This document shows positions 14,816 to 35,654 of a DNA stretch of 64,000 nucleotides, piece after piece. The DNA is taken from the NCBI GenBank assembly GCA_002367105.1, contig DFCS01000044.1:124253-188252 (forward strand). Reading direction: 5' to 3'. This DNA is from Hungatella sp. UBA3048 (GTDB taxonomy: Bacteria > Bacillota > Clostridia > Lachnospirales > Lachnospiraceae). The position numbers were made by a program, and so were the translations under genes. Position 1 is the first letter of the stretch. Each line of letters opens with the position of its first letter. Below the pieces are notes generated by a model. That model was not told where the DNA came from. It saw only the letters and a program-made list of their open reading frames with translations, and ran no database searches.

Positions 14816-16501
14816 GTGGAAGCCGGGATAGAGCGGTTTGCGATTTATTCAAGAAAATCAAAATTTACCGGAAAAGGAGAGAGCATCGGAAATCAGATCG
14901 AGCTGTGCAGGCAATACATTTTTGCACATTATGGAGCGTGTTTCGCTGACAGCGCCTGTGTATACGAGGATGAGGGGTTTTCCGGAGGAAACCTTGAACG
15001 GCCTCAGTTTAAAGTCATGATGCAGGAAGCAAAAAAGAAGAAATTTACGGCAGTCGTATGCTACCGTCTTGACCGGATAAGCCGTAACATCGGTGATTTT
15101 GCAAATCTGATTGAAGAGCTTAATGAGCTCCATATTTCCTTTATCTCTATAAAAGAGCAATTTGACACATCCTCTCCCATGGGGCGGGCCATGATGTACA
15201 TAGCTTCTGTTTTCTCTCAGTTGGAGAGAGAGACAATCGCGGAACGCATCCGGGATAACATGCTGGAGCTCTCCAAAAGCGGAAGATGGCTGGGAGGAAA
15301 TACTCCTACGGGTTATACGTCAGAGAGTGTGTCCTCCGTGACCATAGACGGTAAGGTGAAAAAAGCATTTAAGCTTAAGATGATTCCGGATGAGGCAAAT
15401 CTGGTCAAGTTGATTTATGAGAAATTTTTAGAGACAGGATCACTGACTCAAACAGAAACCTATTTGCTCCAGAATGGCCATAGGACAAAATATGGCCGTT
15501 TATTCAGCCGTTTTGCGATAAAAGGAATATTGACCAATCCGGTTTACATGATAGCAGATCATGAAGCCTATGAGTATTTACGGAAAAAAAACGTGGATCT
15601 GTTTGCAGAAAGAGATGCCTTTGACGGAAACCATGGAGTGATAGCATATAACCGTACCCTTCAAAAGGCAGGAAAAACCCACGAGATGAAAGATATGGAA
15701 GAATGGATCGTGGCAGTTGGAAAGCATAAGGGAGTGATTTCCGGCTCCATGTGGGTCAAGGTTCAGCTGCAGCTGGATCAAAATAAATCAAAAAATTACC
15801 GGAAACCCCGCAGTAATGTAGCGTTGCTGTCCGGAATCCTCTTTTGCGGCGGCTGCGGCGGTTATATGCGGCCAAAGCTGTCCGGCCGGTACAATGACGA
15901 AGGGGAACAGATCTATTCTTATTTATGTACCATGAAGGAAAAAAGCCGTATGAAATGCTGCGGAATGAAGAATGTTAATGGAAATATGCTGGATCAGATG
16001 GTCCTGGAGGAAATCAAAAAGATATCTGTGGATTGGGGTGAATTTCAAAAGCAGCTTTGCCGGAACAAAAGGGCAGTGGAAGAAAGCAAAGAGGAAGCGG
16101 AATGGGATATATCCCGTTTAAAAGATGAACGGAAGAATATGGAAGAAGAAATAACCGGACTGGTGGCCTCCCTTGGAAAAGCCGGTGGGACCGGGGCGGA
16201 AGGATATATCATACAGCAGATCGAAGGGCTCCATAAAAGAAAAGGAGAAATGGAGCAGCGGTTATGGGAGCTTACCCTTGATGAAGGAAATAAGGAGCTT
16301 TCCGATACGGAATTACAGTTTATTAAGCAGACCCTGTCTTCCTTTCAACATGTGATCGGCCTCATGGATGTCCGGCAAAGACGGGCGGCGGTCCGCACTT
16401 TTGTGGATAAGGTCATATGGGATGGTGAGAATGTTCATCTGTACCTGTTAGGCTCGAAGGTGCCTGAGTTACCAGAGCCGCAAGGTGACCATAGCAAATG
16501 A
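14816..16501 (+). CDS. spoIVCA: Large serine recombinase (SpoIVCA-like)
   Basis: GTG 14816 follows AGGAGGAAGG. The N-terminal resolvase domain carries the catalytic motif AIYSRKS. The recombinase domain, a Cys cluster (CGGCGG...C...CC) and a coiled-coil follow. The stop TGA (16499-16501) spans the right junction. Confidence 0.9.
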   Translation: MEAGIERFAIYSRKSKFTGKGESIGNQIELCRQYIFAHYGACFADSACVYEDEGFSGGNLERPQFKVMMQEAKKKKFTAVVCYRLDRISRNIGDFANLIEELNELHISFISIKEQFDTSSPMGRAMMYIASVFSQLERETIAERIRDNMLELSKSGRWLGGNTPTGYTSESVSSVTIDGKVKKAFKLKMIPDEANLVKLIYEKFLETGSLTQTETYLLQNGHRTKYGRLFSRFAIKGILTNPVYMIADHEAYEYLRKKNVDLFAERDAFDGNHGVIAYNRTLQKAGKTHEMKDMEEWIVAVGKHKGVISGSMWVKVQLQLDQNKSKNYRKPRSNVALLSGILFCGGCGGYMRPKLSGRYNDEGEQIYSYLCTMKEKSRMKCCGMKNVNGNMLDQMVLEEIKKISVDWGEFQKQLCRNKRAVEESKEEAEWDISRLKDERKNMEEEITGLVASLGKAGGTGAEGYIIQQIEGLHKRKGEMEQRLWELTLDEGNKELSDTELQFIKQTLSSFQHVIGLMDVRQRRAAVRTFVDKVIWDGENVHLYLLGSKVPELPEPQGDHSK

Positions 16502-22839: not shown

Positions 22840-22895
22840 AATTTTAACTATGGAAAATGAAGTTTTTTTCGTGGTTAAAGTTGGTTTTTTATTTT
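22834..22895 (+). terminator. Terminator overlapping the 3' half of the RAT
   Basis: AAAACCAATTTTAAC (22834-22848) pairs with GTTAAAGTTGGTTTT (22874-22888) and is followed by TTATTTT. This is the classic mutually exclusive RAT/terminator layout. Confidence 0.75.
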
Positions 22896-22912
22896 ATAGG
22901 ATGGGACATTGT

Positions 22913-23740
22913 ATGAAAATTGACAAAATAATCAATAACAATATTGTCAGTGCGCTGGAGCCGGATGGAAAAGAAATTATAGTCATGGGCAGGGGAATCG
23001 GTTTCGGTATGAAGCCGGGGAAAGAGATTCCTGAGAGCGCAGTAGAAAAAGTATTCCGTCTGGACAGCCAGAACAATGTTGACAAATTTAAAGAATTGCT
23101 GGTTAACCTTCCCCTTGAACACATCCAGGTTTCTACGGAAATCATAAATTACGCGAAAAGCGTATTAAACAGAAGTCTTAATCAAAACATATACATAACG
23201 CTGACGGATCACATCAATTTTGCCATTCACCGGTTTAAGCAGAAAATGAAATTTTCAAACCCTCTGCTTAATGAGATAAAAACCTTTTACAAAGAGGAAT
23301 ACTTAATCGGTGAATACGCCATCGCATTAATTGAGCGGAGGATAGGAATATCCCTTCCTGTTGACGAAGCGGGATTCATTGCGTTTCACATCGTCAATGC
23401 GGAATTTAATACCGCTATGCGTGATACCATTGATATCACAAACCTGATCCAGAATACCGTAGGGATTGTGAAAGAATATTTTTCAATGGAACCTGATGAA
23501 ATGTCTTTAAATTATCAGCGGTTTGTTACCCATTTAAGGTTTCTGGCACAAAGAATCGTTACAAAGGAGCTGTTAAACAGCGGGAATGTTGAATTTAATC
23601 ATTTGATATCTGAGATGTACCCGGAGGAATACAGGTGCAGTTTAAAAATTAAGGATTATATCATGGAAACATACCATCACGATGTAACGGGAGAAGAGAC
23701 CGCATATCTGGCGGTTCACATCAAGAGAATGAGGCTTTAA
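22913..23740 (+). CDS. PRD-containing transcription antiterminator (BglG/LicT/GlcT family)
   Basis: MKIDKIINNNIVSALEPDGKEIIVMGRGIGF is the CAT RNA-binding domain, followed by two PRD regions. The track start at 22850 would run through the RAT and terminator, so ATG 22913 is preferred. Confidence 0.85.
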   Translation: MKIDKIINNNIVSALEPDGKEIIVMGRGIGFGMKPGKEIPESAVEKVFRLDSQNNVDKFKELLVNLPLEHIQVSTEIINYAKSVLNRSLNQNIYITLTDHINFAIHRFKQKMKFSNPLLNEIKTFYKEEYLIGEYAIALIERRIGISLPVDEAGFIAFHIVNAEFNTAMRDTIDITNLIQNTVGIVKEYFSMEPDEMSLNYQRFVTHLRFLAQRIVTKELLNSGNVEFNHLISEMYPEEYRCSLKIKDYIMETYHHDVTGEETAYLAVHIKRMRL

Positions 23741-23759
23741 GAGAAAGGAGAATCATGAT

Positions 23760-24254
23760 ATGTTTGATTCATTAAAAAAAATATTCGGTGGAGGGGGAGA
23801 AAAAGAAAGAGAAAAAATTCTGGCCCCTGTGGAAGGAACAGTAGTACCCTTAAGTGAAGTAAATGATCCCACATTCAGCCAGGAGATCCTTGGAAAAGGA
23901 GTCGCCATTATTCCGGCAAAAGGTAGAATTGTGGCTCCGGCCGACGGAATCCTGACAGTGGTGTTTGAGACAAAGCATGCTGTCAGCATTACGACTCCGC
24001 AAGGTGCTGAGATCATTGTCCATGTAGGACTTGATACGGTCAATTTAAAAGGGGAGCATTACACTGCTTATAAAAAGCAAGGAGACAAAGTGAAAGCTGG
24101 GGAGCTTCTTCTTGAATTTGACATGGCAGCCATAAAGGGAGCAGGATATGAGGTGATTACTCCGGTTATCGTGTGTAATACGCCGAATTATCCGGATATG
24201 GTATGCCATACAGGGATGCAGGTAAAGGAACTGGAACCAATCATCGAATTATAG
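23760..24254 (+). CDS. PTS EIIA component, glucose family
   Basis: The blocks ...VNDPTFSQEILGKGVAIIP... and ...HVGLDTVNLKGEHY... are present, including the phosphorylatable His region. Confidence 0.85.
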   Translation: MFDSLKKIFGGGGEKEREKILAPVEGTVVPLSEVNDPTFSQEILGKGVAIIPAKGRIVAPADGILTVVFETKHAVSITTPQGAEIIVHVGLDTVNLKGEHYTAYKKQGDKVKAGELLLEFDMAAIKGAGYEVITPVIVCNTPNYPDMVCHTGMQVKELEPIIEL

Positions 24255-24262
24255 GTATTAAA

Positions 24263-24517
24263 ATGAGGGAGTATTTGTATGAATTAAAAGATCCCCTGGG
24301 ACTTCATGCCAGGCCGGCTTCCATGATCTTTATGGAAGCGAGGAAATATTCGTGCAGCATAGAAGCCCAGTGGGAATCAGACAAAGCGGATTGTAAAAGC
24401 CTTTTGGCATTAATGGGGCTTAGAGCCAAAAGAGGAAGCATCATCCGGTTCCTGTTTGACGGAGAGGATGAGGAGGCGGCCATAACCGCGCTTTGCGCCG
24501 TTTTGGAAGAAATGTGA
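24263..24517 (+). CDS. HPr-family phosphocarrier protein
   Basis: The 84-aa product contains GLHARPAS (His-15 motif) and a ...KSLLALMGL... region (Ser-46 equivalent). The start is ATG 24263. Confidence 0.75.
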   Translation: MREYLYELKDPLGLHARPASMIFMEARKYSCSIEAQWESDKADCKSLLALMGLRAKRGSIIRFLFDGEDEEAAITALCAVLEEM

Positions 24518-24588
24518 TCTGAACCTGCTTGGCAGCAGGAAAGGATAAAAAATGTCCGGTAGGACAAAAAGAAAGGGGTTTCTTTATT

Positions 24589-26058
24589 ATGATGAAGTAT
24601 TTGCAAAAACTAGGTAAGTCATTGATGCTTCCTGTGGCATGTTTGCCTGCGGCAGGCATCCTGATGGGGATTGGCTACTGGATTGCCCCAAGCATAATTT
24701 CCGGGCAAGGGACTGCTACGGGGGTTTGGGCCGTTATTGCTGCTTTTTTAATTAAAGCTGGAGGTGCCATTATTGACAATCTGCCCATTCTCTTTGCCGT
24801 CGGTATAGGTATAGGTATGTCCGATGACCAAGATGGTACCTCTGCACTTGCGGCTCTTGTTTCTTGGCTGATGATCACGACTATTCTTTCAACAGGAACA
24901 GTTGCCTTGTTATTGAAAATTGACGCATCTCAAGTAAATCCAGCTTTTGGTAAGATTGCAAACCCGTGTATTGGTATTATATCAGGTCTTATCGGTGCAA
25001 ACTGCTATAATAAGTTTAAGAAAACTAAGCTTCCTGATGCGTTGGCGTTTTTCAGTGGTAAGCGCTCTGTTGCAATTGTTACAGCCTTGTCGTCTTTGGT
25101 GGTTAGTATTGTATTGTTCTTCGTATGGCCGGCTATTTATTCTGTAATAGTTGCATTTGGTGAAATTATTCTAAGTTTGGGACCCGTTGGAGCTGGTCTT
25201 TATGGATTCTTTAACCGTCTGCTCATCCCACTTGGTCTTCATCATGCACTGAATGCTGTGTTCTGGTTTGACCTTGCTGGAGTGAATGATATTGGTAAAT
25301 TCTGGGGTACAGCAGGAGGCGGAATACTAGGTCAGACAGGTCAATATATGTCGGGATTTTTCCCTGTCATGATGTTCGGCCTTCCGGCAGCGACTCTGGC
25401 TATGTACCATACTGCAAAGCCAGGAAAAAAGAAAACGGTGTATGGTTTATTTTTCTCAGCCGCATTATGTTCTTTCTTTACAGGCATTACAGAGCCTATT
25501 GAATTTGCTTTCATGTTCCTTGCTCCTGGACTTTACTTAATCCATGCAGCATTAACAGCCATTTCCATGACAATCATTGCTATTCTTCCTGTACGTGCAG
25601 GCTTTTTCTTCAGTGCAGGTTTTGTTGACTGGTTCTTGAGCTTCAAAGCACCATTTGCGGAGAACTCATGGCTGCTCATCCCAATCGGTATTGCTTATGG
25701 TGCTGTTTACTACATCATATTCCGTTTGGCAATCCCGTTGTTTAACTTTAAGACACCTGGACGGGAAGATGATGATGATGACATGAATGAAAGTACTGTG
25801 ACTCTTGCCAATAATGACTATACGGCTGTTGCTTCCATCATTCTGGAAGGACTTGGCGGTAAGGACAATATCACCAGTATTGATACCTGCATTACCAGAT
25901 TAAGACTGGAAATTGTTGACTACACTAAGGTAAATGAAAAGAAGATTAAATCTGCCGGTGTGGCAGGAGTCATCCGTCCTGGAAAGAACAGTGTTCAAGT
26001 CGTAGTTGGAACTCAGGTTCAGCACGTTGCAGATGAATTTAAAAAGCTTTGTAAATAA
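24589..26058 (+). CDS. PTS EIICB component, glucose/maltose/N-acetylglucosamine family
   Basis: MMKYLQKLGKSLMLPVACLPAAGILMGIGYW is a typical EIIC N-terminus. The C-terminal EIIB domain carries ITSIDTCITRLRL (active Cys). Confidence 0.85.
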   Translation: MMKYLQKLGKSLMLPVACLPAAGILMGIGYWIAPSIISGQGTATGVWAVIAAFLIKAGGAIIDNLPILFAVGIGIGMSDDQDGTSALAALVSWLMITTILSTGTVALLLKIDASQVNPAFGKIANPCIGIISGLIGANCYNKFKKTKLPDALAFFSGKRSVAIVTALSSLVVSIVLFFVWPAIYSVIVAFGEIILSLGPVGAGLYGFFNRLLIPLGLHHALNAVFWFDLAGVNDIGKFWGTAGGGILGQTGQYMSGFFPVMMFGLPAATLAMYHTAKPGKKKTVYGLFFSAALCSFFTGITEPIEFAFMFLAPGLYLIHAALTAISMTIIAILPVRAGFFFSAGFVDWFLSFKAPFAENSWLLIPIGIAYGAVYYIIFRLAIPLFNFKTPGREDDDDDMNESTVTLANNDYTAVASIILEGLGGKDNITSIDTCITRLRLEIVDYTKVNEKKIKSAGVAGVIRPGKNSVQVVVGTQVQHVADEFKKLCK

Positions 26059-26399
26059 TATTGGACTAAAAGGAGCTATCGCATGAACGATTTTTATCGC
26101 TGGTGCGAGGCTCTTTTTTTTCGTTTGTTTTTTTGAGCTATTCTTAAGACATTTCCCTGTCGCTTTATTTCTATGTCAAATCTAATCGCATTTCCCATCC
26201 GAACAAATTGCCGAGTAGACGGCCGTCATCTTCTCCTCAATACGATCCTGGCGTAATTGTTAAGCCACTGTTAACTGAAACAATACACCGTTTAAGTGAA
26301 ATATCTTGATTCATACTCTCTTTATCTTCCTTTTGCGCATTATTTAACAGAGCTTTTTTGCTCTATCATTTTATATCTCTCTTTATGTTTGATTGGAGG

Positions 26400-26430
26400 A
26401 AAAGTTACATTATTTGTCGTAAAAGTTACA
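26400..26430 (+). promoter_or_regulatory. Pair of 10-bp direct repeats, candidate LytTR (AgrA-like) binding site, with a -10 box downstream
   Basis: AAAAGTTACA occurs at 26400-26409 and again at 26421-26430, a centre-to-centre spacing of exactly 21 bp. TATAAT lies at 26459-26464, upstream of agrD. Confidence 0.6.
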
Positions 26431-26498
26431 ACATCTTCAAATTGATAAAAAGGGGGTATATAATAAAAATAAAATATACTTTAGGAGGTAATCCCATT

Positions 26499-26645
26499 AT
26501 GAAAAAAGTAAAGAATAATCCAAGAGTGGTCAGTATAATTAGCCATATGGCACTAGGTTTTTCTGTAATAGCAGCAAATACACTCTGCTGTGCTATTTAT
26601 CATCAACCAACAAAACCTGATTTGAAAAAATTGAGAAAGTTCTGA
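26499..26645 (+). CDS. agrD: AgrD-like autoinducing peptide precursor (48 aa)
   Basis: ATG 26499 follows TTAGGAGG. MKKVKNNPRVVSIISHMALGFSVIAANTLCCAIYHQPTKPDLKKLRKF has an amphipathic leader, a Cys-containing core, and a QP..P charged tail. The stop overlaps the agrB start (TGATG). Confidence 0.7.
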   Translation: MKKVKNNPRVVSIISHMALGFSVIAANTLCCAIYHQPTKPDLKKLRKF

Positions 26646-27223
26646 TGGAAAGGCTGGCAGAAAGATTAACTCATTATATTCTTTCTTATGAAGGGATGAA
26701 AGAGGAAGATTACAATATATATAAGTATGGAATACAAACAGGGTTAGAGATGTTTTTGTGTTTATTTATAAGCACAATACTAGCGATATACCTTAAATCG
26801 CTAGTAGAATTTTTAATATTTATAATTGTATTTTTTGCTTTAAGATCTTATGTTGGCGGGTTTCATTTAAAACACTTTACCTCATGCTGCTTTTGTTCTT
26901 GCAGTGTAATTTGTGCAGTATTGATTATTTCAAAAAAGTTTGAACCGTCTGTATATGTTTCAATGTTTGTGACGGTAGGTTGTATGTGGACAATCTATAG
27001 GTTAGCACCTATTACAACGAAGAAACTCATATTAGATGATAGTGAGATATCCTATTTTTCTTTTAAAAGAAAGCGAATCATGTTATGTATCATTGTTTTA
27101 GATATAATATTCGGAATCTTAGGTTTGGGTAGGTATGTATCATTGATTATGTATATTTTAGTCGTAATTTTAAACTCTATGATTATGGAATTGTTTAATG
27201 ATAAGAAATGTAGAAATACATAG
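26645..27223 (+). CDS. agrB: AgrB-family AIP-processing membrane peptidase
   Basis: The 192-aa polytopic product contains ...LRSYVGGFHLKHFTSC..., the conserved R-x-x-GG-H and Cys region of AgrB. Confidence 0.8.
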   Translation: MERLAERLTHYILSYEGMKEEDYNIYKYGIQTGLEMFLCLFISTILAIYLKSLVEFLIFIIVFFALRSYVGGFHLKHFTSCCFCSCSVICAVLIISKKFEPSVYVSMFVTVGCMWTIYRLAPITTKKLILDDSEISYFSFKRKRIMLCIIVLDIIFGILGLGRYVSLIMYILVVILNSMIMELFNDKKCRNT

Positions 27224-27421
27224 AGGGGTCCGTGTTCTATTAATTAAAATATGTTAATGATAGATGATTCCACATATCTGTTATTATATTTTTGTAGTGG
27301 GATAGAAGATGATAATACTCGCTATAAGAGATTATAACAGAAAGGAGTGTTGCCATTGCAGTATTTAAAAATAATTAGGCTATGGTAAAAAAAATAAAGA
27401 TGATTTAGAAAGGAGAAGAAT

Positions 27422-27607
27422 ATGGGAGATTATAGTGAATTTGATCTGGATTTAAAGAAGAAAACAACAAGAGCGGGTAATGGCGGTAATGGAGGTAATG
27501 GTGGAGAAGGAGGAGGAGGAACTTCTCAGGCTACAACAGTAACTATAACTATTGGTATGACTACATCAAAAAATTGCAGTGCCCCTACTTGTACATGCTT
27601 CTGTTAA
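27422..27607 (+). CDS. Class I lanthipeptide precursor (LanA)
   Basis: The RBS is GAAAGGAGAAG. The leader contains the FDLD box (F-N/D-L-D). The C-terminal region TSQATTVTITIGMTTSKNCSAPTCTCFC has 13 Ser/Thr and 4 Cys. The gene lies directly upstream of lanB. Confidence 0.8.
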   Translation: MGDYSEFDLDLKKKTTRAGNGGNGGNGGEGGGGTSQATTVTITIGMTTSKNCSAPTCTCFC

Positions 27608-27687
27608 GTTGTAGCTGTAAGCTCATTTTTGATAACCAAAGTGGTTAGATCTACACGTAAAAATTATAAATCTAGATAATGAGCTGC

Positions 27688-27724
27688 ATAGGGCGTACTT
27701 AAAACTATATTAAGTACGCCCTAT
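27688..27724 (+). terminator. Intercistronic hairpin between lanA and lanB (putative leaky terminator or processing site)
   Basis: A perfect 15-bp stem ATAGGGCGTACTTAA / TTAAGTACGCCCTAT is present, with only a weak T-tract after it. Confidence 0.5.
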
Positions 27725-27754
27725 TATAAGTATTGAGAATATGAGGGGGTAAAT

Positions 27755-30700
27755 ATGGATTATATAGCAAAAGATTTTATTATGATCAGGATACCATTGC
27801 TTTCTGAAGAGTTTTTAGATTTTGTACTTAAAGAGTCTGTTAATAACGAAAATAAATTCATGGAACTAGTCGAAAATAACGTATTTATGGAAGCAATACA
27901 AATCGCTTCACCAGATTTGTATCATATGATTGTAGAAAGTAAAAAAAACAATCAAAATACTATTATCAATAAAAAAATCATTAACTCCTTATGTAAATAT
28001 GCGGTCAGGGCCTCATCAAGAACTACACCATTTGGCCTTTTTTGTGGTTTTTGCATGGGGACTTTTGGTGATAACACATCTTTAATCTTAAGTGATCATA
28101 CTGATACATTAACAAAACGTGCTAGAGCCGATGCGGAATGGATTGATAATATTGTGGTAAAATTAGAAAAAAGTAAAAAATTTATGAGGAAAATAAATGT
28201 ATATAAAAATACAGTTTCATATAAAAAGGGTTATAGATTAATTAATCCATATCTTTGCAATGAAAACATTAAAAAAAATGACGCAATCGATATATCGTCG
28301 TCAATTCGCTATTCTGAGCAAGTAGAGCAAGTGCTTGAACTATGTAAATCAGGTATTGAATTCGGAGATTTAGAAACAGAAATGTGTAAATTATACAGTG
28401 GAACAGATCATACGGTAATAGAGACTTTTCTATGGGGGTTACTAGAAAATGGATTCATCATATCTGAATTAAGAATGCCAAAGGCAAATATAAATGCAAT
28501 AAAATATTTGAGCGAAATCATAAAAAGAACCAGTTTAGAAGAAGAATTATTAACTGATTTGTTGGAAATTCAAAAACTGATGGAAGCGTATTGCAGAACC
28601 TGCGTAGGGGATGGTATATACCTATTTGATAAGTTACAGGGAAAAATGAAAGGTGTAGTAGAAAACAGTAACTATCTGCAAGTTGACATGAAAATGCAAA
28701 TGAATAATGCTCAAATCAGTTTTAAGATTAAAAATGAATGTGAGAATATTGCAAATAAATTAGCTAAATTATCTGGATATATTGATGGGAATTATAATAT
28801 AAACGAATATAAAAAAGAATTCTTGGAAAAGTATAGTACGTATATTGAAGTTTCGCTCTTAGAATTACTTGATCCAGAACTTGGTCTTGGGGCGCCGGCA
28901 GGCTATATATATCCGGCTAGTAACAGGATATCAAATGTTAAGAATCTAAATAATTCTGCTAAGGCTGCAAATGATTTAAGACATTATTTAATAAATAAGA
29001 TAACATATTCTGCCTGTTCGACTACGAAAAATATCGAATTTACGGACAAGGATGTTGTGTTTGTAGACGAAGATATTGATTATATGGATCATATTTTGGA
29101 AAAATATAAAAGTAATGTTCTTCCAGATTCTTTTGAAATGAATTTTTTAATTTTTGCTTCTGATGAAAAAGAGATTGAAAAAGGAAATTATAAAATTGGT
29201 ATCGGGCCAAATGTTGGCTCAGATCGAGCTGGCAGAATATGGGGTAGGTTTGCAGACATGCTTAGTACCGATGAGAGGGTAAAATATGATGAGTTGTATT
29301 ACGGTTTAAGAGATTGCCTGGACGAAAATTATCAATTGATAGAGATTCAAGAAGAGCCATTATCAAGCCGGGTGGGTAATATCATTTTAAATTGTAATTG
29401 TTCCGAATACCAGACTACGATAGGGTGCAAAGGTAATGAAGAAAAACAGAATTTAGAATTAAGTGATATTGTTGTTGGTGTTGATACTAATACAAATGAT
29501 TTTTATTTAAAATCAAAATCTTTAAATAAAAAAGTGAAGTTTATTACTTTTAATATGCTTAATACACTAGTAGAAAGTAATTTGTGCAGATTTGTCAGAG
29601 AAATTTCTAGTAATAGAGATAGTTGTGTTTCGCGATTAGTAGATGGCTTGTTTTTAGAAGGATATACATATATTCCAAGAATGATATATAAAAATGTAAT
29701 ATTATCACCAAGAAGTTGGAGATTTACATTAGATTCCTCAGGGATCAATTATACTGATTTTATAAAAAAATTTAATGAGTGGCGAGTAAAATGGAAACTG
29801 CCGGATATTATTTATGAAAAACACTTTGATGATTTATTTTTAATAAACTTAAACGATTCATCACAAGTACATAATTTATATCTAGACTTAATTAAAAATA
29901 GTATTCTTGTGTTTGTTGATTATGGGATGAAAGAAATATTGGTAAAGGACTGCAATGGCAAAAAGTATTATTCAGAATTTGTTATACCATTCATTAAAGA
30001 AAGCAAAGGGGGAGGGCAGAATAATTCTTTAAATACTGCGAATGTATTGAAAACTACATCTGATTATACAAGAAATAAAGCTGTCTACACTTTCTATGAT
30101 AAGGAGCGAGTAGTGACACCTGGATTTAATGATTGGTGGTATTTGAAATTTTATTGTGACAATCAGAGTGCTGACTCTTATCTATGCGATAATATTTTAC
30201 CTTGGTGCGAAAATCATATTTCACAGGGGAATATGATCCAATTCTTTTTTATTCGTTATGCTGATCCTGAATTTCATATAAGATTAAGGATAAAATTATC
30301 TGGAAATCTTTATATGGACGTTATTGAGCCATGGATCAGAGATATGATAAATAAGACTGGAATTAGTAATATGAGCATTAATTCATATGAACGGGAATTA
30401 GAGCGTTATGGGGGAAGTTTATCATATAGTTTCGTAGAAGAGTATTTTTATTGGGACAGTCTATTTATCATGAAGATATTGAAGAATAAAATGAGTGATG
30501 AATATGACGAAGAATTAATTGTAATGAATAATATATGTATCTTGAGCTGTTTTGATTTAAAAATAGACGATCAAATAGAATTTTTTGAAAACAGTTATAC
30601 GGAATTAAACAGATTAAAAAAAGAATATAATCAGTATACAAAAAAATTCATTATTTTGATAGATCATATAAATGAACTTCTTTCATTAAAAAATGCTGTT

Positions 30701-30958
30701 TCAGAGGATGAAAAATTATTTAATGAGTTAAAAAGTGTGTTTGAGGTATGGAAAGAAAAACTAAAATTATATGTTGTTAATTTACATAAGTATGATAATG
30801 AAGGTAAATTAACAAATAATTTAGTAGATATTTTACGTAGTATATTACATATGCACTGCAATAGATTCCGGGGAGATACCACATGGGAAAGGAAAACTCT
30901 AGAATACACTTATAGAAGCTTATATGCGTATAGAAACTATAAGAAATACAATCCTTGA
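27755..30958 (+). CDS. lanB: Lanthipeptide dehydratase LanB (full length, glutamylation plus elimination domains)
   Basis: The 1067-aa product has the N-terminus ...FIMIRIPLLS...RASSRTTPFGLF. The C-terminal SpaB_C-like block is ...WWYLKFY...FFFIRYADPEFHIRLRI... Confidence 0.85.
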   Translation: MDYIAKDFIMIRIPLLSEEFLDFVLKESVNNENKFMELVENNVFMEAIQIASPDLYHMIVESKKNNQNTIINKKIINSLCKYAVRASSRTTPFGLFCGFCMGTFGDNTSLILSDHTDTLTKRARADAEWIDNIVVKLEKSKKFMRKINVYKNTVSYKKGYRLINPYLCNENIKKNDAIDISSSIRYSEQVEQVLELCKSGIEFGDLETEMCKLYSGTDHTVIETFLWGLLENGFIISELRMPKANINAIKYLSEIIKRTSLEEELLTDLLEIQKLMEAYCRTCVGDGIYLFDKLQGKMKGVVENSNYLQVDMKMQMNNAQISFKIKNECENIANKLAKLSGYIDGNYNINEYKKEFLEKYSTYIEVSLLELLDPELGLGAPAGYIYPASNRISNVKNLNNSAKAANDLRHYLINKITYSACSTTKNIEFTDKDVVFVDEDIDYMDHILEKYKSNVLPDSFEMNFLIFASDEKEIEKGNYKIGIGPNVGSDRAGRIWGRFADMLSTDERVKYDELYYGLRDCLDENYQLIEIQEEPLSSRVGNIILNCNCSEYQTTIGCKGNEEKQNLELSDIVVGVDTNTNDFYLKSKSLNKKVKFITFNMLNTLVESNLCRFVREISSNRDSCVSRLVDGLFLEGYTYIPRMIYKNVILSPRSWRFTLDSSGINYTDFIKKFNEWRVKWKLPDIIYEKHFDDLFLINLNDSSQVHNLYLDLIKNSILVFVDYGMKEILVKDCNGKKYYSEFVIPFIKESKGGGQNNSLNTANVLKTTSDYTRNKAVYTFYDKERVVTPGFNDWWYLKFYCDNQSADSYLCDNILPWCENHISQGNMIQFFFIRYADPEFHIRLRIKLSGNLYMDVIEPWIRDMINKTGISNMSINSYERELERYGGSLSYSFVEEYFYWDSLFIMKILKNKMSDEYDEELIVMNNICILSCFDLKIDDQIEFFENSYTELNRLKKEYNQYTKKFIILIDHINELLSLKNAVSEDEKLFNELKSVFEVWKEKLKLYVVNLHKYDNEGKLTNNLVDILRSILHMHCNRFRGDTTWERKTLEYTYRSLYAYRNYKKYNP

Positions 30959-30975
30959 GGTGAAAAATAATTATA

Positions 30976-32748
30976 ATGAAAAGTCGACAAAATAAGAGTA
31001 AAAAGATTTTAAGTTGTTTCATTAGGTGCAGTAGAATATTGTTTGGGACTACTCCTTATTACACTTGTAACATTATTATATGCATTGTATTGATTGCGAT
31101 CCAGCCTAGTGTTTCAGTAATGATTATGAGAAATATCATCAACAGTATTCAACAGAAGGATATACCTATACAGGAAATCCTTTTTCTGGCAGCAATATAT
31201 ATCTTTGTAGATATAACAAATGGATTGATCCTTAAATTAGTATCTTATCTATCTTTTGTTGTTGAGAAAAAATCATCAATAAATGTATCGACTGTCATAT
31301 TGGAAAAGACGAAAGAATTAGATCTTTCAGACTTTGAAAATATGAATACCTATGATTTGATTCAAAGAGCACAAAATGAGAGCAATGGTAAAATATTTGG
31401 ATACTTTATGAGTTTTTTATCGATCTTTCAAGCTTTAATTATAGTAATATCCAACTTTTTAATTGTAAAAAGTTGGAGTATTTTTATCGTGCTTTTTTTG
31501 GCAATAATAACCTTGATCAGAATGATATTTTTAATAAAGTTAGGTGGAGAAAAACATAGTATACTCCGTGAAAGAACGCATAAGGAAAGAGAAAGATGGT
31601 ATTATCAATTTTTATTAACAAATGATATTGCATTTAAAGAAATTAAAATATATGATTTGTATCAATATTTTATTGATAAGTTCAAAAACCTTAGTAATAT
31701 TTTCTATGATCAGGATAAAAATATATCTAAAAAACAATTTACTATTGACACATTATTTTCAGTTATAGATTCAGCACTATCAGGAGTTGTTTTTTGTTTA
31801 TTAATTATTAGTAGTAAAATAGGCCGGCTTATGATTGGTGATATTGTCGGATATATGAGTAGCATCTCTAATATTAAAAACAACATTGAGAATTTTTGTT
31901 TAAGTATTGCTAATATATGTGAAAGCACACTTTATGTATCACAATTATTTGAGTTGTTGGATATTAATTCCAGACGTTCTATTGAAAATGGTAAAGTTGA
32001 GATTGATCAAATTAAAAGAATAGAATTAATTAATGTAAACTTTAAATATAGTGGAAAAGATGAGTATGCATTGAAAAATATTAATTTATTATTCGAGAAA
32101 AATAAAATGGTTTTTTTAGTTGGAAAAAATGGTTCTGGAAAATCCACATTAGTAAAGTTAATATCAGGATATTATCAGAATTATGAAGGGGATATTTTAG
32201 TTAATGGAATTAACTTAAGGGAAATTAATTTAAAACAATATCAAGAAAAGTTGGGAATTTTACTTCAAGACTTTATGATGTATGAGCTGCCCTTGAGAAG
32301 TAATGTGGCTTTATCCAATTTACGTTACTACAATGATGATAAAGAAATTAATGGATTATTACATTCTGTAGGATTTACTAAATATGAAACATTGGATATG
32401 CAGTTGGGGTATTGGTTTGAAAATGGTCATCAATTATCTCGTGGTGAATGGCTGAAAATCGCTCTAGCGCGTGCTTTTATGAAGGATGCAGATATTTATA
32501 TTGCCGATGAACCAAACTCTTCCTTAGATGCCATATCTGAGTCAGAGATTATGCAATACTTTAGACATTTGATAAAAGGAAAAATATGTATTATTGTCAC
32601 TCATAAAATGAGTAACATAGTTACATCGGTAGGAAACATAATTGTCATGAATAATGGTCAGGTAATGCAAATGGGGACACATGATTATTTGATGAAAAAT
32701 TGTTCGATTTATTCAGAACTCTTTCATTGTGAGCCGAGCAATAATTAG
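30976..32748 (+). CDS. lanT: ABC exporter (LanT-like, fused TMD-NBD, no C39 peptidase domain)
   Basis: The 590-aa product has six predicted TM segments, then GKNGSGKST, LSRGEWLK (degenerate signature) and IYIADEPNSSLD. There is no N-terminal Cys-protease domain. Confidence 0.8.
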   Translation: MKSRQNKSKKILSCFIRCSRILFGTTPYYTCNIIICIVLIAIQPSVSVMIMRNIINSIQQKDIPIQEILFLAAIYIFVDITNGLILKLVSYLSFVVEKKSSINVSTVILEKTKELDLSDFENMNTYDLIQRAQNESNGKIFGYFMSFLSIFQALIIVISNFLIVKSWSIFIVLFLAIITLIRMIFLIKLGGEKHSILRERTHKERERWYYQFLLTNDIAFKEIKIYDLYQYFIDKFKNLSNIFYDQDKNISKKQFTIDTLFSVIDSALSGVVFCLLIISSKIGRLMIGDIVGYMSSISNIKNNIENFCLSIANICESTLYVSQLFELLDINSRRSIENGKVEIDQIKRIELINVNFKYSGKDEYALKNINLLFEKNKMVFLVGKNGSGKSTLVKLISGYYQNYEGDILVNGINLREINLKQYQEKLGILLQDFMMYELPLRSNVALSNLRYYNDDKEINGLLHSVGFTKYETLDMQLGYWFENGHQLSRGEWLKIALARAFMKDADIYIADEPNSSLDAISESEIMQYFRHLIKGKICIIVTHKMSNIVTSVGNIIVMNNGQVMQMGTHDYLMKNCSIYSELFHCEPSNN

Positions 32749-32770
32749 CAGATCACCACAAGGAGTATAT

Positions 32771-34096
32771 ATGAAAAAAAATGTGGAATTAGTAAATGAA
32801 TCAAACATCATAATGGATTTAAGTATTATAAATCAGATAAACAACATACTTAATGACTATTTATATAAAATAGAAGAATTACAATATAGCATAAAAATAG
32901 AAGACATTATCGGAGCTGCATATGTTTATGCAGAAATATATGAGTATGTGGTAAATAAAGACCAATGGAACAATATCATAAGGAGGCAGTTTATAAGGTT
33001 AAAAGAATGTATTGAGCAAGGAGAATTAATGAATGATATGGCGTTATTCGGTGGTTTATGTGAAGCTGGATTAGCTGTTTATCTTTATTCAAAAAAAACG
33101 GGGCATTACATAAATTTTTGGAAGGAAATACATGAAATAATTTTAGACGATACTGTTAAACTAGTTGAAGAATACCATCAAAAGATTAACGACTTGCAAA
33201 TAAGACACTATGACTGCATTACGGGTTTAAGTGGTATTTTAAATTATTTAATTCATACAGATGCAGAACGTGATGATAATAAAGCAATTATAGAAGATGT
33301 GTTGGGTTATTTACTTAAAATTACTGAAAGAAAACTGGTTAATGGAAAGATAGTCCCAGGTTGGCATATTAGACGAGAAAATCAAATACGGGAGGATGAA
33401 AAGGTAAGATTTAAAAATGGTAATTTTGATTTTGGAATATCACATGGAATCGCAGGTCCTTTAGCAGTGCTGTCAATGGCCTACCAAAAAGGATATTGTA
33501 TTGAAGGCCAGAAAGAAGCAATTTTATCTATATTAGAAGAATATGAAAGGCTCTCATCGCATTTTAAAGATAGTACCTTGTGGCAAGGACAATATTCATT
33601 TGAAAATTATTTACAGAGTCAACAAGACCCCATTATGAATTACAATAGAATGAGTTGGTGCTATGGTTCAATAGGAATATTAAGAGCGATAAAGTTAGCG
33701 GGATTTGCATTAGATTCCCAAGAGCTGATAGAATGGGAACAAAAAAATGTTTTTAAAATAGCGGGGATGCTATCAAAAGATTATCTTCTTGATTCACCAA
33801 TTATCTGCCATGGGTATGCAGGTTTAATGGCTTTGCTTACTATTGAATATAAGGAACATGCTAATTATATACTAAAAGAAAAAATAAATGAATTGGCCAA
33901 TATTATAGTGAAAAAATATAATTCCAATTTTATGTTTGGATTTGAGCATACAGAAATATACTATCATAATGGAAAATATTTGAAAAACGAAATGTATGGA
34001 AATGAGTTTTTGTATGGAGCATCAGGAATTATTTTATCTCTGATATCTTTAATAAAATTGGATACTTATTGGGAAATACATCTATTAGCAAAATAA
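32771..34096 (+). CDS. lanC: Lanthipeptide cyclase LanC
   Basis: ATG 32771 follows AAGGAG. The zinc and active-site motifs are GISHGIAGP, WCYGSIG and CHGYAG. Confidence 0.85.
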   Translation: MKKNVELVNESNIIMDLSIINQINNILNDYLYKIEELQYSIKIEDIIGAAYVYAEIYEYVVNKDQWNNIIRRQFIRLKECIEQGELMNDMALFGGLCEAGLAVYLYSKKTGHYINFWKEIHEIILDDTVKLVEEYHQKINDLQIRHYDCITGLSGILNYLIHTDAERDDNKAIIEDVLGYLLKITERKLVNGKIVPGWHIRRENQIREDEKVRFKNGNFDFGISHGIAGPLAVLSMAYQKGYCIEGQKEAILSILEEYERLSSHFKDSTLWQGQYSFENYLQSQQDPIMNYNRMSWCYGSIGILRAIKLAGFALDSQELIEWEQKNVFKIAGMLSKDYLLDSPIICHGYAGLMALLTIEYKEHANYILKEKINELANIIVKKYNSNFMFGFEHTEIYYHNGKYLKNEMYGNEFLYGASGIILSLISLIKLDTYWEIHLLAK

Positions 34097-34141
34097 TGGA
34101 ACAAAAATGAAATCACATTACTGAGAGGCAGGGATTTAATA

Positions 34142-35362
34142 ATGTGGAATGAACATGTCATATGTTTGAGCAAATGGAACCAACTGAAAAGTATGAAAGA
34201 ATTACAACCTGAGAATTGTGAAATATTTGAACCAGATATCTCATTTATAGTTATATGCAAAAATGAAGAAAGATGCATCGAGAGATGCATTCGGAGTATT
34301 CAAAACGAATATGCCAAGGATGATGAAATCATAGTCATTGATACTGGATCTACAGACAATTCAATAAATATTGTTAGCCAGATTGATGAATGTAGATTAA
34401 TTAAAAAGACATGGGAAAATGATTTTTCTATGATTAGAAATTTTGGAATCAATTTAGCTACTAAAACTTGGATATTTTTTATAGATGCAGATGAGATATT
34501 GATAAAAGGATCAATAAAAAATCTGAAAAAGTCTTTAATGATATTAGATTATAATTCTATAAGTAATGTTATTATTTCACCATTAATTGTCAATTCAAAT
34601 TTGCATGTAATTCGAGAAGTAAAGAGAATATTTAAAAAAAATGATGGAATATTTTATTATGGATGTATTCATGAAGAACCTAGAAAAAATATAGAAAAAT
34701 CAGGTGCAGATTTAATTCACTTATTCTTGGATAATGTTGCCCTTGAGCATGATGGATATAAAAGGGAAATTGTAAAATTAAAAGATAAGGCAAATAGAAA
34801 TACAGATTTATTGAAAAAAATGATTTGTGTTGAACCCCAAAATCCAAGATGGAAATATTTTTTATGCAGGGATGGAAGAAATAGTATCAATGAAATGGAA
34901 TACGAATATCTATTAAATGAAGTAATCCAATTGTCAAGTCAGGAACCGATATTTTTGCGATACCGAATAAGAGCCACAAGTGATTTGATAAGCTATTTTA
35001 TTGATTCTGATAGATTAAATGAAGCTGATATTCTCTTAAATAAATTAGAAAAGTTGGATAATGATTTAAGTGATATCGTTTATTTTAGGCACTTTATAAA
35101 ATATGTAAAATGTAAAAAAGAAATTATGCAAATATTTCAATCACTTGTTGAATGCAAAAAAAAATATACAGACATAGAATACGGGGGGATTCATTCAAGC
35201 TATTTTCATATAGATTATTTAATGGGGTTACTATTATTTGATTTAGGCGAGTACCAATATGCATTTCAGATTTATAATCATTTAGAAGCCAATGAATATA
35301 TAGATCTGAAAGAAATGTTCAAAAATTTATATAATCAAATGACGAATTTTCTTAATGAATAA
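34142..35362 (+). CDS. Family-2 glycosyltransferase with a C-terminal TPR-like helical domain (SunS-like architecture)
   Basis: The GT-A blocks are ISFIVICKNEE, VIDTGSTDNS, WENDFSMIRNFG, FFIDADE (DxD), HEEP and EPQNPRW. The C-terminal 170 aa or so are helical repeats. The gene lies 45 nt downstream of lanC on the same strand. Confidence 0.7.
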   Translation: MWNEHVICLSKWNQLKSMKELQPENCEIFEPDISFIVICKNEERCIERCIRSIQNEYAKDDEIIVIDTGSTDNSINIVSQIDECRLIKKTWENDFSMIRNFGINLATKTWIFFIDADEILIKGSIKNLKKSLMILDYNSISNVIISPLIVNSNLHVIREVKRIFKKNDGIFYYGCIHEEPRKNIEKSGADLIHLFLDNVALEHDGYKREIVKLKDKANRNTDLLKKMICVEPQNPRWKYFLCRDGRNSINEMEYEYLLNEVIQLSSQEPIFLRYRIRATSDLISYFIDSDRLNEADILLNKLEKLDNDLSDIVYFRHFIKYVKCKKEIMQIFQSLVECKKKYTDIEYGGIHSSYFHIDYLMGLLLFDLGEYQYAFQIYNHLEANEYIDLKEMFKNLYNQMTNFLNE

Positions 35363-35502
35363 ATTGTAGGTGGCTGTCACACGAAGTATTTTAAAGCAGT
35401 AGAAATCGAAAAATATAACTATTAATTCTGCTTAGAAGATAATCAGAGATGAATATTATTATCATGCCTATGGCTTGATAATATGAAGAGACGGGGAGGC
35501 GG

Positions 35503-35616
35503 ACAAAAAGTTGGACTCAAAAATGGCTTGATGTTGGCTCTTATGGCTACAAACGATCGATCTTTCCAGAGGAAATTGCTGGTCCATTAGGGCAATCAGT
35601 TGGTCCAACTTTTTGT
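35503..35616. repeat. Perfect 14-bp inverted repeat enclosing 86 bp (possible mobile-element remnant)
   Basis: ACAAAAAGTTGGAC (35503-35516) pairs with GTCCAACTTTTTGT (35603-35616). Local GC content is visibly higher than in the surrounding island. Confidence 0.6.
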
Positions 35617-35654
35617 TTGCACCCCTTATAGAGGCTGAATTAACCTCTTTTTCC

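Follow-up and report, generated by a model that had tools for sequence, protein, structure and literature searches.

A 64,000-nucleotide stretch from Hungatella sp. UBA3048 (contig DFCS01000044.1, positions 124,253 to 188,252, here referred to as the window and numbered from its first letter) contains an operon with the order lanA, hairpin, lanB, lanT, lanC and a glycosyltransferase (GT) gene (Table 1). The first gene, lanA, encodes a peptide of 61 residues. Translation of its open reading frame (ORF) on the forward strand yields MGDYSEFDLDLKKKTTRAGNGGNGGNGGEGGGGTSQATTVTITIGMTTSKNCSAPTCTCFC*, in exact agreement with the peptide given in an earlier reading made from the DNA letters without database searches (the sequence-only reading). 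An AAGGAG ribosome-binding site is located at 27410-27415, six bases 5' of the ATG. All four cysteines are confined to the final 10 residues, as had been stated in that reading, and follow the pattern C-x4-C-x-C-x-C. Unmodified, the full precursor has a mass of 6067.706 Da and its putative core (T34-C61) one of 2870.263 Da. The evidence presented below makes it probable that the peptide is a LanA precursor whose product, a class I lanthipeptide, also carries a sugar.

Table 1. Coordinates of the lan system and its surroundings. Positions refer to the window unless a related locus is named.
Feature	Position	Strand	Basis
Low-GC island containing the whole system, ~29 % GC, flanks 44-45 %	26400..38000
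LytTR/AgrA-type direct repeat AAAAGTTACA x2, 21-bp period	26400..26430	+	5' of predicted agrD promoter
agrD, autoinducing-peptide precursor, 48 aa	26499..26645	+	TIGR04223, 29 bits (cutoff 19); called in locus L002
agrB	26645..27223	+	PF04647, E 5e-30
Conserved non-coding blocks 5' of lanA, ATGTTAATGATAGATGATT...TATCTGTTATTATAT and ACAGAAAGGRGTGTTGCCATTGCAG	27251..27361	+	alignment A1
lanA, precursor, 61 aa	27422..27607	+	translation, core selection, alignment of precursors
FDLD leader box, residues 7-10	27440..27451	+	F-D-L invariant in 6/6 distinct precursors compared
Variable Gly/Asn-rich spacer, residues 19-33	27476..27520	+	Tandem Repeats Finder, alignments, length variants
Putative core T34-C61 (N-terminus inferred)	27521..27604	+	conservation onset; MadA F(-17) spacing
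T56-C57-T58-C59 motif with proposed S-glycosylation acceptor Cys57	27587..27598	+	likeness to thermoglycocin and glycocin motifs
15-bp hairpin between lanA and lanB	27688..27724	+	minimum free energy -23.6 kcal/mol, z -4.4
lanB, dehydratase with glutamylation and elimination domains	27755..30958	+	PF04738, 2e-125; PF14028, 2e-42
lanT, ABC exporter, no C39 peptidase domain	30976..32748	+	Pfam/NCBIfam
lanC, cyclase	32729..34096	+	PF05147; start of gene callers 32771
GT, peptide O/S-glycosyltransferase, SunS/ThuS/ThgS family, 406 aa	34142..35362	+	TIGR04195, structures, trees
agrC-like histidine kinase	35655..36965	-	PF14501
agrA-like LytTR response regulator	36958..37728	-	PF00072, PF04397
FMN-reductase/flavodoxin-like gene between lanC and GT in related loci	L010 9198-9932; L018 7211-7948; L009 7702-8457; L011 2146-2880

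The sequence-only reading took the ORF for a class I lanthipeptide precursor with an FDLD box, and the genes that directly follow bear this out in encoding full-length LanB, LanT and LanC. The alignment of LanB with MadB (PDB 9G04; E 4e-119, residues 8-1063) is full length, as is that with NisB (3e-55, residues 35-1064). LanC matches MadC (PDB 8BYK; 2e-37) and NisC (3e-24) and has conserved SHG, WCYG and CHG motifs, the roles of zinc ligands and catalytic His being taken from the NisC literature. The two structures are those of MadB and MadC from Clostridium maddingley. In the cryo-electron microscopy structure of MadB, the leader segment LDDFDLDVKVKA (-20 to -9) is bound by the RRE, the recognition element for RiPPs (peptides that are made on ribosomes and modified after translation), with R161 and R182 contacting its aspartates (PMC12241602). 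Replacement of FDLD by AAAA abolishes binding, and the box is essential for binding of both MadB and MadC (PMC12241602, PMC9889658). R161 and R185 of the LanB studied here align with the leader-binding residues R161 and R182 of MadB. The features that define class I at the sequence level are thus present, i.e. LanB with both of its domains (PF04738 and PF14028), LanC, an FDLD leader and suitable Ser/Thr-Cys spacing, and the system can be expected to work like a class I lanthipeptide pathway. LanB, LanT, LanC and the GT all look intact.

The end of the leader is atypical, as had been proposed. There is no Pro at position -2 or elsewhere near the boundary and no other nisin-type cleavage context. 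A LanP protease was not found either, with no Peptidase_S8 match among the Pfam-scanned ORFs and no subtilase motif in any window ORF of at least 150 residues. Likewise, a search of all 64 kb turned up no gene for LanI or LanFEG; the MacB-type ABC systems outside the island belong to the core genome. A dedicated LanP with its Pro(-2)-type site and LanI/LanFEG are common but not universal in class I systems.

Over the final 25 codons of lanA, the ratio of non-synonymous to synonymous polymorphism (pN/pS) lies at 0.05-0.32 in every pairwise comparison, and the core is under purifying selection. In every related cluster in which the contig reaches that far, lanA is located directly 5' of lanB. 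Because of this conserved place, the low pN/pS values and the ribosome-binding site, we take the ORF to be a genuine lantibiotic-type precursor gene. It was also considered as a candidate for AgrD since it is situated 3' of agrB, an assignment that was rejected as the true agrD resides 5' of agrB. Neither the window nor the related loci revealed a second precursor gene, no plausible small gene is present in the gap between the GT gene and agrC, and Pfam and NCBIfam contain no model for the precursor.

Precursor relatives and the variable leader spacer

A word-indexed search of 5.8 billion proteins returned the window precursor itself and nothing else, and the same outcome was obtained for the precursor from the related locus L010. 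Exhaustive phmmer comparison with 1.84 billion representatives gave one true relative (the L014 peptide) and one spurious low-complexity match. Scanning of genome contigs with LanB peptide patterns yielded nothing, and back-translated core patterns hit just two loci, L013 in a genome and L014 in a metagenome. Further relatives were reached via homologues of the GT in a series of graded identity and via the contigs carrying them. GTs with 99, 91, 79 and 76 % identity are encoded directly after lanC, with a small ORF ahead of lanB in all of these clusters. The precursor family now comprises five distinct sequences, stemming from metagenome contigs and two metagenome-assembled genomes, among them ...KAGKGGNGEGGGGTTQATTVTITIGMTTSNNCSAPTCTCFC in L004/L013, MGKNNGFDLDLKRTKAVESDNRETASVATTITITTGFTTSDNCSAPTCTCFC in L005/6 and MENYNGFDLDLKRTNATESNNRETASHATTITFTIGMTTSDNCSAPTCTCFC in L014. 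Conservation of the core runs from about T34/A37 to the C-terminus. Metagenomes that contain the sequence are of terrestrial, solid-waste, wetland, biofilm, bovine-gut, biogas and soil origin.

A second subfamily is made up by L010/L011 (54 % GT identity) and L018 (46 %), with the gene order lanB, lanT, lanC, FMN-reductase-type gene and GT. The L010 precursor, MGNYSDFDLNIKTTKNKNEVSPASTSNLCWAASSAVVSSVATGCTGQCVSTNCGTASGCSNSTCSCHC, matches the window peptide in its leader and in its C-terminal pattern S-x-x-T-C-[ST]-C-[FH]-C and differs from it in the middle part. A longer pattern, S-x-N-C...S-x-x-T-C-[ST]-C-x-C, is common to window LanA and the L010 subfamily. Flavin-dependent reductases of the LanJ(B) type convert dehydroalanine and dehydrobutyrine to D-amino acids, and by analogy the Ser-rich cores of the sister subfamily might carry D-Ala besides rings and sugar. 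A decayed cluster, with a LanB fragment of 150 residues and a LanC remnant of 221 residues, is present in L009 (6675-7677). Its FMN-reductase gene and its GT gene are intact, and the contig also encodes a phage-type integrase a few kb upstream.

In the window copy, the leader contains a Gly/Asn-rich spacer that begins with three copies of the 9-bp repeat GGTAATGGN. The repeat pointed out in the sequence-only reading is indeed present, if one base off from where it was placed (about 27477-27503): it occupies 27476-27502 (Tandem Repeats Finder, TRF: 2.9 copies, 94 % matches, score 45) and is followed by GGAGAA(GGA)4, encoding GEGGGG (G28 to G33). About nine short tandem arrays with a TRF score of at least 40 are found within the window, and the repeat by itself is therefore statistically unremarkable. 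Its significance stems from comparison with the relatives, and here the anticipated variation of copy number between strains is borne out. L008 has exactly one 9-bp unit fewer than the window copy, i.e. two NGG units, and the same one-unit deletion is seen in run X4. Runs X13 and X14, with contigs roughly 90-95 % identical, feature a different 6-bp deletion in the tract, and the version in L004/L013 is 12 bp shorter. Every length change is in frame. The Gly/Asn tract amounts to 15 residues in the window peptide, 12 in L008, 11 in L004 and 0 in L005. Judged from these copies, the 9-bp repeat is evidently a real hot spot for insertions and deletions, and spacer length varies between strains via slippage of short repeats.

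The Gly/Asn tract is wholly absent from L005 and L014, in which the distance from FDLD to the core is canonical. This distance amounts to ~17 residues in L005, L014 and L010 and to ~27 in the window copy owing to the spacer. When the F(-17) position of MadA is applied to the short peptides (F7), the boundary falls after residue 23 and meets the onset of conservation. The window leader is therefore best understood as a canonical FDLD leader with a lineage-specific insertion of ~10 residues and not as a new kind of leader. As two relatives have no tract and canonical spacing, the tract is not a family-defining feature. Precursor lengths of 61, 58, 57 and 52 residues were read directly and a fifth, about 59, was derived indirectly; since the core is the same throughout, the spacer is probably dispensable for modification.

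It could be argued that the tract is part of the mature peptide, given that the boundary has no recognisable cleavage motif. We consider this very unlikely, as the tract differs in length among close relatives, is missing from L005 and L014 next to the same core and holds no modifiable residue, and conservation begins only after it. Cleavage of the double-Gly (C39) type after EGGGG was also considered and rejected: LanT has no peptidase domain and the relatives without the tract have no GG.

The glycosyltransferase and the candidate sugar site

The GT gene follows lanC on the same strand after a gap of 46 bp and is the last gene of the operon. Its product matches the NCBIfam model for SunS-family peptide S-glycosyltransferases (TIGR04195) with an E value of 1.5e-51, aligns end to end with ThuS (7MSK, 2e-42) and SunS (7MSN, 3e-32) with the DAD metal-binding motif kept, and shows 44 % identity and 66 % similarity to ThgS across 379 residues (E 9e-105). 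In seven of seven other lan clusters examined (L003, L004, L005/6, L008, L010/11, L018 and the decayed L009; 46-99 % identity), the GT gene comes last, following either lanC directly or lanC plus the FMN-reductase gene. Neighbour-joining trees place all lan-associated GTs in one clade beside glycocin-type GTs, with ThgS among the nearest glycocin-type relatives. GT relatives with at least 54 % identity, plus one at 46 %, reside in LanB/LanC clusters. Four relatives at 44-47 % (L012, L015, L016 and L017) are found in classical glycocin clusters that encode GT, C39-ABC transporter and two thioredoxin-like proteins. All this indicates that the GT is part of the operon and goes with clusters of this type.

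It is conceivable that the operon specifies an ordinary class I lanthipeptide and that the GT does not act on LanA, either because it has another substrate or because it is inactive. Cell-envelope pathways commonly employ enzymes of the GT2 family, and the GT falls short of the NCBIfam cutoff for SunS. We nevertheless regard this as improbable, given the terminal position of a single GT clade in the seven other lan clusters, the full-length alignment with ThuS, SunS and ThgS that includes the peptide-binding C-terminal domain, the finding that the nearest non-lan relatives are all glycocin GTs, and the location of the gene inside the low-GC island.

Glycocin F-like precursors are encoded in three of the four glycocin clusters and end ...TCGTCTCR (L012), ...GCGTCTCH (L016) and ...CKWICTCH (L017), while no precursor turned up in L015. 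These uncharacterised glycocin F/thermoglycocin-like peptides (L012 9152-9352, minus strand; L016 1397-1591, minus strand; L017 2643-2918, plus strand) contain at least seven Cys and, with their C-T-C-[HR] ends, extend the recently described 'three-disulfide glycocin' group.

In the pathway that we propose, LanB and LanC would dock on the FDLD box, LanB would dehydrate core Ser/Thr residues via glutamyl-tRNA and LanC would close the C-terminal (methyl)lanthionine rings S49-C52, T56-C59 and T58-C61. The latter two would be intertwined, nisin D/E-like methyllanthionine rings around Cys57. A fourth ring, S53-C57, would form only if Cys57 is not glycosylated. The GT would add a sugar, most likely N-acetylglucosamine (GlcNAc), or else another hexose, with Cys57, the first Cys of T-C-T-C, as the favoured site. 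The sugar-bearing Cys57 would then sit inside a small thioether ring, comparable to Cys44 of thermoglycocin in its disulfide loop. Finally, LanT would export the peptide, and the leader would be removed by a protease not encoded in the island. Ser/Thr-Cys pairs at ring-forming distances are available for all four Cys (S49/C52, S53/C57, T56/C59, T58/C61), and interlocked C-terminal rings, which the sequence-only reading had already envisaged, are a reasonable expectation from residue spacing.

ThgA, the thermoglycocin precursor, ends ...GGGGTCGTCTCH (G-T-C*-T-C-H), with a Cys41-Cys46 disulfide loop and S-GlcNAc placed on Cys44 by ThgS (PMC12457901). A Ser in the loop is O-GlcNAcylated by ThgS as well, with Cys being the preferred residue (PMC12457901, Martini et al. 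2025). LanA ends PTCTCFC and the L010 subfamily STCSCHC, so that both hold the T-C-[TS]-C-[HF] of the mapped acceptor, and glycocins encoded beside the nearest glycocin-type GTs end CGTCTC[HR] or CTCH. The earlier suggestion of a long N-terminal stretch that is either heavily dehydrated or glycosylated thus requires modification: glycosylation as such is strongly supported by a ThgS/SunS-family enzyme as the last gene of the operon, while the T-C-T-C motif with Cys57 provides a better lead to the sugar site, though not proof of it, than the Thr-rich N-terminal stretch. Tentatively, and with less than even confidence, we propose a natural glyco-lanthipeptide, in which a glycocin-type S-GlcNAc transferase and a T-C-T-C motif have been grafted on a class I scaffold, resulting in an S-glycosyl-Cys within a methyllanthionine ring.

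Alternatively, the same pathway may be operated with a GT that O-glycosylates Ser/Thr, for example in the Thr-rich ATTVTITIGMTTS, or S-glycosylates Cys61. In the O-linked case four thioether rings would arise (S49-C52, S53-C57, T56-C59 and T58-C61), the last three of them chained. The core offers 12 Ser/Thr but no more than 4 Cys, and each Cys has a Ser/Thr partner at a suitable distance, in a pattern that is common with the L010 subfamily. O-linkages are also made by ThgS, by ThuS and by the enzyme for glycocin F, whose C-terminal Cys bears S-GlcNAc (PMC12457901, PMC10373908). LanB, however, would compete for the same Ser/Thr residues, a D-S-G-type loop motif as used for O-GlcNAc in glycocin F and thermoglycocin is absent from the core, and ThgS and ThuS prefer Cys over Ser (PMC12457901). 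Altogether, we think of these other sites as possible but rather unlikely.

A number of points weigh against the proposed pathway. The GT reaches 175 bits compared with the curated NCBIfam cutoff of 350 for the SunS family (equivalog). Each of the four Cys has a canonical Ser/Thr partner at i-3 or i-4, so that S-glycosylation of Cys57 would have to outcompete LanC, and an O-glycosylated Ser/Thr or an S-glycosylated Cys61 is equally compatible with the data. The likeness in T-C-T-C concerns four residues in Cys/Thr-rich peptides and could be coincidental. No LanP, LanI or LanFEG that would account for maturation and self-protection was found in the window. There is no AgrA-type direct repeat upstream of lanA, and agr control of the lan operon is suggested only by the co-location described in the next section. 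The expression evidence consists of a single low-depth contig. Lastly, rings and sugar, just as sugar site, cleavage site and activity, are what we infer from the encoded proteins and peptide.

The low-GC island, its agr module and expression of lanA

The low GC content of the block that harbors the system, set amid DNA of much higher GC, together with flanking housekeeping proteins that cluster at 90 % identity or more with those from Lacrimispora spp., indicates an island that a Lacrimispora-like (Lachnospiraceae) chromosome acquired by horizontal transfer. The window outside the island is ordinary core genome. A complete agr quorum-sensing module brackets the lan operon, with agrD-agrB on its 5' side and agrC-agrA on its 3' side on the opposite strand. 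A predicted agrD promoter (-35/-10, TTCAAA-17-TATAAT) is located at 26436-26464, just 3' of the AAAAGTTACA repeat, an arrangement suggestive of autoinduction of the module. A promoter scan detected no sigma-70 site on the plus strand directly upstream of lanA. The non-coding blocks in this region are kept in L004, L005 and L014, with L004 and L005 showing no adjacent agr genes, and even in the distant L010 subfamily (…CCATTGCAG…; alignment A1 of L004, L005, L008, L010 and L014). They contain no conserved small ORF, find no match in Rfam and may represent an operator, a promoter or an element of the 5' untranslated region.

The hairpin between lanA and lanB is conserved, with compensatory changes in three pairs among five loci, and has no match to an Rfam family. 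Such changes are to be expected where a lantibiotic operon yields more mRNA for lanA than for the enzymes, and the structure would fit the usual attenuator or stabiliser at this position. In the cDNA run X18, a contig of 157 nt is 100 % identical to 27537-27693, starting midway through the lanA core and ending at the foot of the hairpin. A few contigs of this run fall on neighbouring housekeeping genes and none on lanB, lanT, lanC or the GT gene. The contig is weak evidence, consistent with an abundant, hairpin-terminated lanA transcript. Runs X13 and X14, which are labelled RNA-Seq, were rejected as evidence for expression as their contigs of 55-67 kb cover the whole stretch evenly. In run X19, labelled DNA by guess, phosphotransferase system (PTS) genes at 23453-26076 are covered at a depth of ~22 and lanA (27424-27585) at a depth of 5, and lanB, lanT, lanC and the GT gene do not appear. 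This pattern looks more like RNA than DNA and, if it is RNA, provides a second hint of lanA transcription.

A silent or decaying locus with an ORF that is not expressed would agree with the lack of LanP and immunity genes, with the minimal expression evidence and with the visible decay of the related cluster in L009. Such a remnant is highly improbable, however, since the genes in the window are all of full length, the core is under purifying selection, length changes are without exception in frame, the hairpin exhibits compensatory changes and a cDNA contig falls on lanA.

The island is inserted directly after a gene for a NagE-like GlcNAc-specific PTS enzyme IICB (TIGR01998, above cutoff; 22850-26058), which is preceded by genes for a PRD antiterminator, enzyme IIA and HPr. 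The same left junction is found in L004 (1106-4248), the relative with 79 % GT identity, whose cluster is devoid of lanT and agr. It may be by coincidence that a GlcNAc transporter and a ThgS-like GlcNAc transferase are encoded near each other. At 14816-16501, in DNA of normal GC content ~10 kb to the left of the island, lies the gene for a large serine recombinase with Resolvase, Recombinase and Zn-ribbon domains; a link to island mobility is not evident. Just outside the island, a 405-aa ORF (38694-39911) has no Pfam match at E <=1, and L004 contains an ORF of 386 aa with a match to FliB_C in a similar position.

Comparison with known systems

The closest solved LanB and LanC enzymes are MadB (9G04) and MadC (8BYK) from the maddinglicin system, with which the system described here shares the FDLD box followed by basic residues (DDFDLDVKVKA in MadA, SEFDLDLKKK here) and the leader-binding arginines. 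As in maddinglicin and geobacillin I, Cys residues are present at the extreme C-terminus and intertwined C-terminal rings are predicted. In contrast to both, the core has no nisin-like lipid II-binding rings (no xTSxSLCTPGC) and instead a Thr-rich, Cys-free N-terminal half, the leader contains a variable Gly/Asn spacer, and LanP and LanFEG were not found. A further difference is the GT in the operon; none is mentioned in the Mad papers PMC12241602 (searched for the word) and PMC9889658.

With nisin, the system has in common the LanB/LanT/LanC logic, the F-x-L-D leader box and a hairpin after lanA. The nisin segment T-A-T-C-H-C forms the intertwined rings D and E. It is resembled by T56-C57-T58-C59-F60-C61, with an extra Cys at the position of nisin Ala24. 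Rings A, B and C, hinge and Pro-Arg site are lacking here, as are NisP, NisI and NisFEG, and regulation is apparently via agr, going by co-location, and not via NisRK. As the motif for rings A and B of nisin-like lipid II binders, x-[ST]-x-[ST]-L-C-T-P-G-C, is absent from the core, the peptide is not nisin-like in its target-binding part.

Thermoglycocin and orniglycocin (ThgA/ThgS and OrgA/OrgS; three disulfides) are linked to the system by ThgS, with its 44 % identity to the GT, and by the match of P-T-C-T-C-F-C to G-T-C*-T-C-H. They differ from it in featuring a helix-loop-helix with nested disulfides, a C39-ABC transporter and thioredoxin-like proteins and no LanB/LanC, and the acceptor Cys of thermoglycocin resides in a disulfide loop where a thioether ring would be formed here. 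Of the properties that mark glycocins, a GT of the SunS/ThuS/ThgS family is present, as a full-length match albeit below the NCBIfam equivalog cutoff. Two C-x6-C pairs for nested disulfides, a C39 transporter with a double-Gly-type leader and thioredoxins (none in the island) are missing. Because of the missing fold, transporter and thioredoxins, we do not classify the system as a glycocin. SunS (sublancin, 7MSN) and ThuS (thurandacin, 7MSK) belong to the same family with GT-A fold and helical C-terminal domain; they are more distant from the GT than ThgS and differ in substrates and cluster architecture.

In the open-access literature we came across no account of class I clusters that include a GT of the SunS/ThgS type, although mention elsewhere is possible; the large 2020 genome survey of lanthipeptides mentions glycosyltransferases for class IV clusters only. 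Sugar-bearing nisin has so far been obtained only by chemical 'click' modification, with the aim of solubility and a changed spectrum (PMC12455637). If our proposal is correct, the small precursor family carried by Lacrimispora-like bacteria and unidentified metagenome contigs would represent a new subclass of hybrid RiPPs, would be the first S-glycosylated class I lanthipeptide and would bring a new tailoring reaction to the lanthipeptide class that is most used. It would illustrate how RiPP classes hybridise by exchange of an enzyme together with a short acceptor motif, and would provide an enzyme set co-adapted to one substrate that is useful for engineering stable S-glycopeptides. The leader would be one in which the distance from recognition box to core naturally varies by 10 residues, and the natural variants with a spacer of 0 to 15 residues between FDLD and core constitute a ready-made test for the distance tolerance of LanB and LanC.

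The known glycosylated lanthipeptides treated in open-access reviews are NAI-112 and cacaoidin only. Both are, like the product proposed here, sugar-bearing lanthionine RiPPs, but they stem from actinomycetes and belong to other classes, NAI-112 to class III (LanKC) with an N-linkage to Trp and cacaoidin to class V (lanthidin) with an O-linkage to Tyr.

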